Shown here: positions 18,015 through 24,000 of the stretch, one piece after another | Layout of the letters: every line of letters starts with the position of its first letter | Numbering within the stretch: the first letter of the stretch is position 1 | IMG/VR virus record: IMGVR_UViG_2537562190_000016 | DNA length: 29,568 bases | Direction: 5' to 3' (one strand) | Source of the DNA: a virus | Taxonomy: Duplodnaviria; Heunggongvirae; Uroviricota; Caudoviricetes | Made by a program: the position numbers

Positions 18015-21000
18015 TGATCAGGATTGCGGCGCTACTCTCAATACTCTTAACTACCAGCGCCAATTCTGAATGCTGGATTGTCACAAACCTGCACGGGTAC
18101 GGGGCAATGAATGGCGATCGTTACGAGTTTACAAAAGACAGCACGGAAGATTCCGTTTTCAACGTAACAATAAATGGCGATAAATCATCAGTTTATGAAT
18201 CAGTTTCTGGCGTCTATCCAGAGATGAAATACACTGCTTTGTCATCGAACACTATGGTAGGAGAATACCAGTCTGGAGGAGGCATAACCGTTGAAACTTG
18301 GTCAATCACTACAGACAAAAAAGCTCTTTACTCCAAAGTAATGAACATCCCAGGTATGCAACAACTTACATCAACCAAATCCTTTGTTGGTGATGTAGTC
18401 GGAACCTGCAATCAGTAATCCCCACCTCAATCTCGATAACAAAAAAACAAACTATTTTCCGTTTAAAAACAATGGAGTTTGTTTTTCACGCCCTTTTTTA
18501 CAATATTTCTTGTTTACAACATACAATCTTCCTTGTAATTTTAAGCCATCAGCAGGACGCACTGACCACCATTGAAGGTGAGGCTCTTAAAAATTAAGCC
18601 CTGAAGAAGGGCAGCATTCAAAGCAGAAGGCTTTGGTGTGTGTGATACGAAACGAAGCATTGGCCGGAAGTGCGAATCCGGATTAGCTGCCAATGTGCCA
18701 TTGCGGGGTGTTTTCGTTCAGGACTACGACTCCCACACACAACCAAAGCTAACTGACAGGAGAATCCAGATGGATGCACAAACACGCCGCCGCGAACGTC
18801 GCGCAGAGAAACAGGCTCAATGGAAAGCAGCAAATCCCCTGTTGGTTGGGGTAAGCGCTAAACCAGTTAACCGCCCTATTCTCTCGCTGAATCGCAAACC
18901 GAAATCACGAGTAGAAAGCGCACTGAATCCGATAGACCTTACGGTGCTGGCTGAATACCACGAACAGATTGAAAGCAACCTGCAACGTATTGAGCGCAAG
19001 AATCATCGAGTTTGGTATAGCAAGCCAGGTGAGTTCGGTATAACTTGTCAAGGAAGACAAAAGGTTAAAGGGGAATCCATTCCATTGGCATGAGGTACGT
19101 AATGAAGAAGATTGATTACAAGTCCATACCAAAACCAATAGACTCAGCATCAGAGCGAAAAAAACACAAAAAAGAGGCTGAAAAATTAGCAAATTATATC
19201 AGTTTTATTAGAAACAATGCTCACGGCGATGGCGACAAGAAGTTGCTTTCAGATGCTCGGCCCCAAGCGTTCGGTATACTTCGTAAGCAGATGCAATATC
19301 GTCTTCATCCTGGCTACATAATTGAAATTCGCCCTACTGAAAGACAATTGTTCTTATTAAACTCTGTCTTTGACTTTGTAAACGTAGTTGGAGATCTTAT
19401 CGACAGGTCTGTAGATAAGGATCCTGATACAAATAGTTTTCTTCTAACAAATAAAGAATACTTATATGGTAAATTCGGTATAAACGGATGGCAAAAATAT
19501 GTACGCTTCTTACGTGCATTCGTTGATGCGTATAAAAATTCCGACATGATTTATACATATTTGCCTGGTGGTGATAATTGTACGCTTTCGGCAGACAATA
19601 GAATATTCATACCTGTACTTGGTCTTGGGCTGATTAATGCAGTAAATGAAAAAGATGTTATAATTGTTAAGCAGTGGCGAAAATATGAGGGATATAGATA
19701 TCTGCCATGCTTTGATATATTAAAAATACAGAATAAATTCTATGTAAAAATTAAATATAAAGAAGATATTTTCTTCCTCAGAAAAAACATAGATCTTTTA
19801 CAAGAACTTTCTGGTACAATAGATGTCATCTTAGGTTCTAGGTTTATAAAAGAACTGAAAGAAAGCAGGTCTTTCTCTCGTGTAGAGATAAGCGAGTCAG
19901 AGTTATGGGGTATATCAAATAATCCTGTAAACCACGCTCACCAACGAAACCCAAACAAAAAGTGGTCATAACCCGCTCAGGCGGATTTCATTTTCACGCA
20001 AACAACAGAATAAACACAGCGCTGTGTATTCATTCCAACGAGTGAATACACGGAGCAATGTCGCTCGTAACTAAACAGGAGCCGACTTGTTCTGATTATT
20101 GGAAATCTTCTTTGCCCTCCAAGATGAGGGCGATTTTTTATCTGTGAGGATATGAACAGATGTCAAACATCAAAAAATACATCATTGATTACGACTGGAA
20201 AGCATCAATAGAAATTGAAATCGACCATGACGTAATGACAGAGGAAAAACTTCACCAGATTAATAATTTCTGGTCAGACTCTGAATACCGACTCAATAAA
20301 CACGGCTCTGTATTAAATGCTGTATTAATCATGCTGGCGCAACATGCTCTGCTTATAGCAATTTCAAGCGACTTAAATGCATATGGTGTTGTGTGTGAGT
20401 TCGACTGGAATGATGGAAATGGTCAGGAAGGATGGCCTCCAATGGATGGTAGTGAAGGAATAAGAATTACCGATATCGATACATCAGGAATATTTGATTC
20501 AGATGATATGACTATCAAGGCCGCCTGAGCGCGGCGTTACCGCATACCAATTACGCTTCACTCGAGGCGTTTTTCGTTATGTATAAATAAGGAGCACACC
20601 ATGCAATATGCCATTGCAGGGTGGCCTGTTGCTGGCTGCCCTTCCGAATCTTTACTTGAACGAATCACCCGTAAATTACGTGACGGATGGAAACGCCTTA
20701 TCGACATACTTAATCAGCCAGGAGTCCCAAAAAATGGATCAAACAATTATGGCTATCCAGACTAAATTCACTATCGCCACTTTTATTGGCGATGAAAAGA
20801 TGTTTCGTGAGGCCGTCGACGCTTATAAAAAATGGATATTAATACTGAAACTGAGATCAAGCAAAAGCATTCACTAACCTGAACCGCCCCGGGTTTCCTG
20901 GAGAGTATTTTATCTGTGAACTCAGGCTGCCAGATCATTATTTCCGATGGAAGCATAATAAGCTTTTTCTGCTTCTGCCGGAGGAATATGGCCCAGCCTT

Positions 21001-24000
21001 TCCAGCAATCGTCGATTGTTATACCAGTCCACCCACGTGAGTGTGGCCAGTTCCACTTCTGCACGGTTTTTCCAGCTCTTACGGTGTATTACCTCCGCTT
21101 TGTAAAGACCATTGATGCTCTCCGCCATCGCGTTGTCATACGAGTCGCCAGTACTCCCTGTTGATGCCAGTAATCCGGCTTCCTTAAGCCGCTGCGTGTA
21201 GGCCAGCGATACATACTGAGAACCTTTATCACTGTGATGGATTGTGCCGGACGGCCGACGGGCCCACAACGCCTGCTCCAGTGCATCCAGCACGAATGTT
21301 GTTTCCATGGATGATGAGACCTGCCATCCCACGATGTATCCGGCGAACACATCAATGATGAACGCCACATAAACGAAGCCCTGCCATGTGCTTACCCAGG
21401 TAAAATCAGCCACCCACAACTGGTCTGGACGTTCTGCCACGAACTGACGGTTTACGCGGTCGCATGCGGCAACGGCTTTCCGGCTGACGGTAGTGCGGAC
21501 CTTTTTACCCCGGAGAACACCGGCAAGTCCCATAACCGCCATGAGACGTGCCACAGTGCATCTGGCCACTCTGATACCTTCCCGTAACAACTGACGCCAG
21601 ACTTTACGCACACCGTATACCTTGTGATTTTCATCGTATACGCGCTGTATCTCTTTCTTCAGCCAGTCATCGCGCTGCGCACGGGCACTGCGTTTATCCG
21701 GATAATGTCGCTGTTGCTGACAGTGGTAATACGTTGACGGGGCAATATGCAGTTCGCTGCATACCGGTCCGACCCCGTACTGCTCACGCAGCTTATCCAG
21801 CAGTGGCATTATTTTTTCCAGAGGCGGTCGAACTCCGCCTTCGCAAAATAAGCGGAAGCCTGGCGAAGGATATCGTTACTGCGGCGCAGTTCACGATTTT
21901 CACGTTCCAGCTCTTTCAGACGCTGACGTTCAGCGGTGGTGAGTCCACCATCACCACTCCCGGTATCCCGCTCATGCTGGCGAACCCAGACACGCAGAGT
22001 CTCCGGCGTACAGCCAATCTTTGGGGCAATGGAACAAATTGCCGCCCACTGTGAGTCATATTCATCCTGACTTTCCAGAACCATACGAATCGCCCGCTGA
22101 CGGACTTCGGGGGAAAAACGAGTATTTTTAGTCATCCTGTTTACCTCTTTCTCAGGGAGTTTAGTCTCCAGGATTTCCGGGGCGGTTCACCACTGTACAT
22201 CTGGCCACTCTGATACCTTCCCGTAACAACTGACGCCAGACTTTACGCACACCGTATACCCTGTGATTTTCATCGTATACGCGCTGTATCTCTTTCTTCA
22301 GCCAGTCATCGCGCTGCGCACGGGCACTGCGTTTATCCGGATAATGTCGCTGTTGCTGACAGTGGTAATACGTTGACGGGGCAATATGCAGTTCGCTGCA
22401 TACCGGTCCGACCCCGTACTGCTCACGCAGCTTATCCAGCAGTGGCATTATTTTTCCAGAGGCGGTCGAACTCCGCCTTCGCAAATAAGCGGAAGCCTGG
22501 CGAAGGATATCGTTACTGCGGCGCAGTTCACGATTTTCACGTTCCAGCTCTTTCAGACGCTGACGTTCAGCGGTGGTGAGTCCACCATCACCACTCCCGG
22601 TATCCCGCTCATGCTGGCGAACCCAGACACGCAGAGTCTCCGGCGTACAGCCAATCTTTGGGGCAATGGAACAAATTGCCGCCCACTGTGAGTCATATTC
22701 ATCCTGACTTTCCAGAACCATACGAATCGCCCGCTGACGGACTTCGGGGGAAAAACGAGTATTTTTAGTCATCCTGTTTACCTCTTTCTCAGGGAGTTTA
22801 GTCTCCAGGATTTCCGGGGCGGTTCAACCCCCTTTCCTGTTTTCCTAATCAGCCCGGCATTTCGCGGGCGATATTTTCACAGCTATTTCAGGAGTTCGGC
22901 CATGAACGCTTATTACATTCAGGATCGTCTTGAGGCTCAGAGCTGGGCGCGTCACTACCAGCAGATAGCCCGTGAAGAGAAAGAGGCAGAACTGGCAGAC
23001 GACATGGAAAAAGGCCTGCCCCAGCACCTGTTTGAATCGCTATGCATCGGTCATTTGCAACGCCACGGGGCCAGCAAAAAAGCCATTACCCGTGCGTTTG
23101 ATGACGATGTTGAGTTTCAGGAGCGCATGGCAGAACACATCCGGTACATGGTTGAAACCATTGCTCACCATCAGGTTGATATTGATTCAGAGGTATAAAA
23201 CGGATGAGTACAGCACTCGCAACGCTGGCAGGGAAGCTGGCTGAACGTGTCGGCATGGATTCTGTCGACCCACAGGAACTGATCACCACTCTTCGCCAGA
23301 CGGCATTTAAAGGCGATGCCAGCGATGCGCAGTTCATCGCATTGTTGATCGTCGCCAACCAGTACGGCCTTAATCCGTGGACGAAAGAAATTTACGCCTT
23401 CCCTGATAAGCAGAACGGCATCGTTCCGGTGGTGGGCGTTGATGGCTGGTCCCGCATCATCAATGAAAACCAGCAGTTTGATGGCATGGACTTTGAGCAG
23501 GACAATGAATCCTGTACATGCCGGATTTACCGCAAGGACCGTAATCATCCGATCTGCGTTACCGAATGGATGGATGAATGCCGCCGCGAACCATTCAAAA
23601 CCCGCGAAGGCAGAGAAATCACGGGGCCGTGGCAGTCGCATCCTAAACGGATGTTACGGCATAAAGCTATGATTCAGTGTGCCCGTCTGGCCTTCGGATT
23701 TGCTGGTATCTATGACAAGGATGAAGCCGAGCGCATTGTCGAAAATACTGCATACACTGCAGAACGCCAGCCGGAACGCGACATCACTCCGGTTAACGAT
23801 GAAACCATGCAGGAGATTAACACTCTGCTAATCGCCCTGGATAAAACATGGGATGACGACTTATTGCCGCTCTGTTCCCAGATATTTCGCCGCGACATTC
23901 GCGCATCGTCAGAACTGACACAGGCCGAAGCAGTGAAAGCTCTTGGATTCCTGAAACAGAAAGCCACTGAGCAGAAGGTGGCAGCATGACACCGGACATT

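Follow-up and report, generated by a model that had tools for sequence, protein, structure and literature searches.

A shared IS629 insertion in the kil-gam spacer of a lambdoid Escherichia coli prophage, and a probably artefactual half-copy attached to it in one draft assembly

Introduction

We describe an IS629 insertion sequence (IS) in the early-left (pL) operon of a lambdoid prophage of Escherichia coli 93.0624, together with a second, incomplete IS629 that the assembly of this strain places directly beside it. The window, by which we mean the whole stretch of DNA analysed (29,568 nt; IMG/VR record IMGVR_UViG_2537562190_000016, Caudoviricetes), corresponds to nt 1-29568 of contig AEZT02000002.1 (GCA_000215225.2), part of a draft whole-genome shotgun assembly. 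The drafts produced by the sequencing centre in 2011-12 presumably combined pyrosequencing with short reads. We find that the complete IS629 is an insertion shared with other E. coli genomes, in which it stands alone, and that the half-copy attached to it in the window is probably an artefact of the assembly.

IS629 insertions, truncated copies and nested copies in the prophages of pathogenic E. coli are already well documented, and the insertion treated here is known as a single copy. Elements of the IS3 family, to which IS629 belongs, transpose by a copy-out/paste-in mechanism. IS629 generates target duplications of 3-4 bp and occurs as several subtypes that differ from each other by 4-5% (PMC3271280).

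Results

The insertion site

The IS629 sequences of the window lie between kil and gam, antisense to the pL operon, and are bordered by a 3-bp direct repeat, acc, at 20877-20879 on the left and at 22827-22829 on the right. When the 1947 bp of IS629 sequence and one copy of acc are removed, the resulting 240 nt are 100% identical, in one piece, to phage 434. Because the reconstructed empty site matches phage 434 at 100%, we regard the 3-bp target-site duplication as real, and the first-pass annotation of this DNA, which had recognised the repeat at the outer ends, was right in this respect. In the window the repeat borders a pair of IS629 sequences, but in the relatives described below it borders a single one.

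On the left, kil is intact (47 aa; 20734-20877, + strand) and its stop codon, TAA at 20875-20877, ends on the first base of the target-site duplication, so that IS629 starts 2 nt beyond it. On the right, 72 nt downstream of the duplication, the short form of gam is intact as well (98 aa; 22902-23198, + strand): it encodes the lambda Gam protein, a RecBCD inhibitor, PF06064 matches residues 1-98 of its 98 (E = 2e-64), bet and exo follow, and the same 98-aa protein is annotated in the relatives. The insertion had earlier been placed inside gam. This holds for the long reading of the gene, which is 138 aa long, starts at an ATG at 20832 and is interrupted after codon 16; the first 16 codons of this long form (GamL, MDINTETEIKQKHSLT) occupy 20832-20879 on the + strand and are severed by the insertion, and in the empty site the frame is open through to the short form, gamS. 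It does not hold for the 98-aa Gam, which like kil is left whole. The spacer between kil and gam is the best description of its position, with an orientation antisense to pL and with the functional short gam intact.

The complete IS629

Three IS629 termini (TGAACCGCCCCGGnnnTCCTGGAGA) are found in this region, namely a right inverted repeat (IRR) at 20880-20904 (+) and two left inverted repeats (IRL) at 22165-22189 (-) and 22802-22826 (-); shuffled sequences gave 0 matches. The first two delimit a complete IS629 of 1310 bp on the - strand (20880-22189), whose 25-nt termini agree at 22 of 25 positions, as imperfect inverted repeats of the form TG...CA (again with 0 matches in shuffles). It is 100% identical to the single copy that occupies this site in E. 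coli 2015C-3163.

The complete copy encodes OrfA (108 aa; 21809-22135, -), with an HTH_Tnp_1 domain, and OrfB (295 aa; 20922-21809, -), with HTH_21, rve and rve_3 domains. The orfB frame is offset by 2 nt (-1 frame) from that of orfA, and the ATG of orfB overlaps the stop codon of orfA. Across this overlap lies a full-length match to the ALIL frameshift pseudoknot (RF01497; 21738-21854, -; 120.3 bits against a gathering score of 50), a predicted frameshift signal that includes a UUUUG and an A-run slippery site. Chen and Hu reportedly studied the two frameshift products of IS629 in 2006 (in J Biol Chem), and their work is said to concern these two -1 slippery sites. OrfB is 97% identical to GDN78801.1, annotated as 'IS629 transposase OrfB', the named IS629 protein used for comparison. 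In length, termini, target-site duplication, open reading frames (ORFs), frameshift signal and OrfB identity, the complete copy is an IS629 of the IS3 family.

In these properties it also resembles the IS629/IS1203 insertions known from enterohaemorrhagic E. coli, in its lambdoid and Stx prophages, which have the same length (1310 bp), imperfect ends of ~25 bp, a 3-bp target-site duplication, the same arrangement of orfA and orfB in frames 0 and -1, and the ALIL element. Only the attached half-copy is unusual here.

The half-copy and its five differences

At 22189-22190 the IRL terminus of the complete copy meets, without any spacer, internal position 639 of a second IS629. The partial copy is 637 bp long (22190-22826, -) and corresponds to IS positions 1-639 minus two 1-nt deletions; it contains orfA, the initial ~86 codons of orfB and the IRL at 22802-22826, and lacks the IRR and the DDE domain, so that of the two ends and the DDE transposase of an autonomous IS629 it retains a single end. 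The complete copy has no target duplication of its own. The coordinates given for this arrangement in the first-pass annotation were correct to the base.

The second copy had been called diverged, and it does differ from the first. The pairwise alignment that the first-pass annotation had proposed nevertheless yields only five differences from canonical IS629, three substitutions (at 22194, 22197 and 22261) and two single-base deletions, that is 99.2% identity. The substitutions T 22194 and A 22197 (22194-22197) lie 5 and 8 nt from the junction, are both synonymous, and reproduce the 'TGTAC' state of other IS629 subtypes, as found in another copy of 2015C-3163 and in copies of RM12581 and 4.0522. 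The third substitution, CCTT to CCCT at 22261, is private to this copy; it replaces a lysine of OrfB with arginine and has the form of a homopolymer-length change. Both deletions are in homopolymer runs. At 22451-22455 the half-copy has five T where every other copy has six, which on the coding strand falls in the A-run slippery site beside the orfA stop and the orfB start; at 22483-22485 it has three A where the canonical copy has four, within the UUUUG slippery site of the ALIL consensus on the coding strand. The latter deletion alone occurs in a few other genome copies, which are annotated as frameshifted pseudogenes. The ALIL pseudoknot is still recognised in the partial copy (22377-22491, -; 106.8 bits), and both deleted bases, one U of UAUUUUG and one A of the A-run, appear as gaps at conserved positions of the consensus.

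No natural allele closer to the half-copy than the canonical sequence (99.2%) was found as a possible donor. Two of its three substitutions in the last 100 nt recur together in six records, which differ from it elsewhere. Judged by its sequence, the half-copy is the canonical element with a few changes that look like miscalls and with a terminal patch derived from another copy.

The fused orfA-orfB frame

The two single-base deletions amount to -2, which is equivalent to the -1 frame, and together they bring orfA and orfB of the half-copy into one frame; the arithmetic of the first-pass annotation was sound on this point. The resulting ORF (203 aa; 22161-22772, -; EIH68894.1) comprises residues 1-95 of OrfA, a linker of 12 aa, residues 1-~86 of OrfB and 9 aa encoded by the IRL of the complete copy. 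The 12 residues between the two deletions are read in the third frame and match neither natural frame. HTH_Tnp_1 and a partial HTH_21 are detected in the product and rve is not; its alignment with the 404-aa annotated transposase covers residues 1-195 only. The 404-aa transposases annotated by NCBI join the two frames at the A-run, in the sequence ...LWKK|LMPLL.

Because the fused product ends at about residue 86 of OrfB, before the rve/DDE domain, it cannot be a transposase, and it differs from a transframe OrfAB protein, in which OrfA is joined to the complete catalytic domain of OrfB at the slippery site. In-frame OrfAB fusions, engineered or natural, and OrfAB truncations of IS3-family elements (IS911, IS3, IS629) are comparable in that a single frame is read without slippage and that the N-terminal HTH and HTH_21 are kept. 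The known active fusions, in contrast, arise by the addition of one base at the slippery site and retain the DDE domain, whereas here two bases are lost at two sites, the leucine zipper is scrambled over 12 residues at its end, and the frame closes ahead of the DDE domain. Homopolymer runs of at least 4 nt number 11 and form 55 pairs, 3 of which would fuse orfA to orfB; two random homopolymer errors would produce such a fusion in roughly 5% of cases.

The same insertion in other genomes

The junction between IRL and gam is found at 100% identity in 10 complete genomes of pathogenic E. coli, among them O103:H2 and O121. All of these have just one IS629 there, and a 2501-nt query spanning the region collapses to 1864 bp in every one of them (2501 minus 637). 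A single copy had been named in the first-pass annotation as the sign of an assembly artefact, and one copy is what all 10 complete genomes with the insertion show. A lambdoid prophage at the ybhC attachment site received one IS629 in its kil-gam spacer, antisense to pL and with a 3-bp acc duplication, and the insertion has been inherited by a Shiga-toxin-type E. coli lineage that includes O103:H2, O121 and relatives.

The closest complete genome, E. coli 2015C-3163, served for detailed comparison. Its prophage is the same one and likewise lies at ybhC; the genes N, cIII, kil, gam, bet and exo are present together with the IS. There are 0 differences from the contig of 93.0624 in the complete IS (1310 nt) and 0 in contig positions 22827-32772 (9,946 nt). 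Positions 600-20879 contain 8 substitutions and 2 homopolymer indels, and these 10 are all the differences in the remaining 21.6 kb. The half-copy has 5 differences in 637 bp, where ~0.2 would be expected (Poisson P about 2e-6).

All 10 of the differences from 2015C-3163 outside the half-copy fall to the left of the IS, within window positions 600-19261, mostly in genes that occur in multiple copies among prophages (terL, 879-1122; an esterase gene, 6132-7734). This clustering suggests either a mixing of paralogues in the draft or gene conversion between prophages.

The junction between the partial and the full copy, sought as one piece, does not occur in the 5,426 complete E. coli genomes searched, nor in IMG/VR, the JGI metagenomes or the GTDB representatives. 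The allele with both deletions is likewise missing from these collections, and none of 21,884 IS629 places has it; neither was found in phage records. An exact-sequence look-up among indexed assemblies places the 203-aa product on AEZT02000002.1 only, and the protein searches with the fused peptide and the junction tail list only representatives of 90%-identity clusters, behind which near-identical variants would be hidden. The partial copy and its junction are without a second independent occurrence in any collection searched.

Discussion

Origin of the half-copy

The reading that we favour, and which we hold to be fairly probable without being secure, is that the window contains a real, shared, single IS629 and that the half-copy is an artefact of assembly or consensus calling. 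We prefer it because the structure is unique, the finished relatives have a single copy, the full copy and the flanks are perfect, and the five differences are of a particular kind and clustered, a pattern that agrees better with consensus error or with a mixture of reads within a repeat than with divergence. The course of assembly that we infer is the following. A few reads would have extended the unique sequence on the gam side by ~640 nt into the repeat, and the last reads of this extension may have derived from a different IS629 subtype. The assembly would then have placed this extension directly beside the collapsed consensus of the IS629 repeat, which had high coverage, without merging the two. 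Both 1-nt deletions, like the change from CCTT to CCCT, would be homopolymer miscalls in a thinly covered consensus, and the 203-aa fusion would be a set of errors that was annotated as a protein.

Mis-joins at repeat boundaries in draft assemblies share with the present case a partial tandem copy, uniqueness to one draft, homopolymer differences and variants borrowed from other copies; unlike the usual ones, the join here is base-exact at the IS terminus. The draft also contains a second private homopolymer change, in terL (942-2819, -), where five T have become four at 1073; complete E. coli genomes offer 2,967 homologous places, and none of them shows this state. The last ~60 codons are replaced as a result, and no other assembly encodes the 625-aa product. 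The deletion may be either a draft error or private decay of the prophage. In the sister draft of E. coli 4.0522 (AEZU02000036.1, locus L008, 1-812) a contig end runs 812 nt into an IS629 of another subtype, in which a deletion from three G to two splits orfB into ORFs of 79 aa and 172 aa.

An irregular IS629 join is also present in a further draft. On contig BDIF01000143, next to hlyC (locus L007, 2525-3533), nt 1-326 of IS629 are followed directly by nt 27-709, which creates a 208-aa ORF with a duplicated OrfA N-terminus.

Several points weigh against an artefact. Not a base is lost or gained where the junction meets the IS terminus, an exactness that transposition guarantees and an assembler yields only sometimes. 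Contigs normally consist of overlapping reads, and two pieces that abut without overlapping would require a forced join or a chimeric read. Both substitutions close to the junction are synonymous natural variants and not random errors, and they would be genuine if reads crossed the junction. Finished genomes do contain IS629 copies that are nested or rearranged. Finally, about half of random substitutions mimic a change of homopolymer length, so the argument from CCTT to CCCT is a weak one, and we do not count this change as strong evidence of a pyrosequencing error.

Two further origins of a real half-copy were also considered and set aside: a random tandem duplication, because the endpoint lies exactly at the IS terminus, and the ordinary divergence of an old relic, because the flanks are identical to those of the relative.

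The main rival, possible although in our view less likely, is a real and recent origin of the structure, in which the resident copy received a further IS629, oriented as itself, at position 639 (inner target TGG/CCA), and homologous recombination between the direct right-hand parts (~670 bp) then removed one of them, leaving [resident 1-639][complete IS629] with the outer acc. Such a history accounts for a junction exactly at the IRL terminus, for an outer duplication that is intact around an empty site that reconstructs perfectly, and for a full copy without a duplication of its own, as recombination predicts. There is also precedent for its first step, as the finished genome of 2014C-3655 (CP027351, locus L009, 904-3526) contains an IS629-in-IS629 that is still nested, in the same orientation, with both 3-bp duplications, inner CAG and outer GAA, intact. 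There, the right part of the first element, the complete second element and the left part of the first follow one another, interrupting an Nmad5-family gene of a lambdoid prophage. Like the present structure, that of 2014C-3655 lies in an early-left lambdoid region, has both elements in the same orientation, and has the IRL of the complete copy abutting internal sequence of the interrupted copy. In 2014C-3655 both halves are present (1-986 and 981-1310) around the inner CAG duplication; here the right half is missing, the inner duplication is on one side only, and the assembly is a draft.

What tells against this history is mainly the sequence of the half-copy itself. The resident allele is canonical in all ten relatives, yet the half-copy has 5 differences in 637 bp and the flanks have none, and no known allele pairs a canonical left part with TGTAC. 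The five differences would have to be real mutations, the result of gene conversion, or consensus errors over a real structure; even under this history the deletions that fuse the frames may be errors. Moreover, the structure is private to one draft assembly, and direct repeats of 637 bp would be unstable. The first-pass annotation had also proposed that one IS629 inserted into a resident copy, followed by an adjacent deletion. Its first half has the precedent of 2014C-3655; for the second half, homologous recombination fits the intact outer duplication better, because an adjacent deletion must stop exactly at the old IRR.

Improbable, in our estimation, is a real structure made by transposase without homologous recombination, either through a tandem insertion followed by an adjacent deletion or through transposition of a 1947-bp composite; in essence this is the version of the first-pass annotation. 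In the tandem route a defective IS629 allele would insert beside the resident IRL, and an adjacent deletion mediated by an IS end would remove its right part; insertion beside resident ends and junction-driven deletions have been described for IS3-family elements such as IS911. The difference between the half-copy and the resident allele would find an explanation by this route, and the unit does have an IRL at one end and an IRR at the other, flanked by a 3-bp duplication. Among about 25,000 IS629 places, though, there is no donor allele, a composite landing exactly at the site that is occupied in ten relatives would be a coincidence, and more steps are required than in the other explanations. 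Hardly credible is an ancestral composite from which the relatives derived their single copy when the half-copy recombined with the left part of the full one, a crossover within IS positions 1-341 restoring a perfect canonical IS629. If it fell upstream of the first variant, exactly the sequence of the relatives would result, and loss by direct-repeat recombination is easy, yet the flanks are identical to those of four relatives, which are closer to the window than to the other six (99.8% against 99.2-99.6%), and several independent losses would be needed, while in a single lineage an unstable repeat would have had to persist for long.

Whether the fused ORF is real is a separate matter, and we consider this doubtful. 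The first-pass annotation had read it as a constitutive OrfAB-like fusion, which is probably not biological, given the kind and the clustering of the five differences. It is decidedly unlikely that the half-copy and both of its deletions are real, with a hard-wired, truncated OrfAB-like protein being made without ribosomal frameshifting upstream of an intact IS629.

Consequences for the pL operon

The insertion had been thought probably polar on gam, bet and exo. Strong polarity through ~1.3-1.9 kb of untranslated RNA is possible, albeit unproven, and any such effect would be common to the ten finished genomes. On the + strand we counted 3 terminator-like sites, against 2.2 in shuffles, so that they are no commoner than in shuffled sequence; they include a weak stem of 5 bp within the IRR and, downstream of the IS, a site in native lambda sequence. 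The N gene lies upstream of the insertion. In lambda, polymerase modified by N should read through such sequences, and antitermination would lower the polarity. No promoter-like site was found, including at the junction 22189/22190, and the creation of a promoter at this junction was accordingly rejected.

Two further features of the early-left region may be mentioned. The lambda cIII thermoregulator element of Rfam (RF01804; 88.5 bits) is present at 20588-20646 (+), at the start of cIII, as expected in a lambda-like early-left operon. Between N and a DUF2528 gene there is an ORF of 293 aa (19090-19971, +), for which no Pfam domain is on record and which is annotated as a hypothetical protein in the relatives.

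Phage vB_EcoS_phi330 (PV189401) has an IS629-like element at another site of the same operon, where it splits the cIII-kil region (locus L022, 1509-3092); it lies in that region and not at the site described here. The early-left region appears to be a recurrent target of IS629.

Meaning of the structure

The interpretation with which this DNA was first annotated is only partly supported. The half-copy and its fused frame are probably artefactual and, if real, they would be an ordinary product of the known behaviour of the IS3 family. A private structure beside a repeat in an old draft, with homopolymer 'mutations', should not be taken as a new transposase isoform or as a record of transposition history until it has been confirmed.

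Were the structure real, it would neatly illustrate what is expected when a nested IS is resolved by recombination, and it would provide a candidate for a truncated OrfAB acting in trans. The truncated protein would combine the end-binding HTH with a damaged leucine zipper and part of HTH_21, and it would lack a catalytic domain. Any regulatory role of the fused ORF is speculation; by occupying IS629 ends in trans, its product could damp or redirect the transposition and the IEE-dependent excision of the many IS629 copies of this genome.

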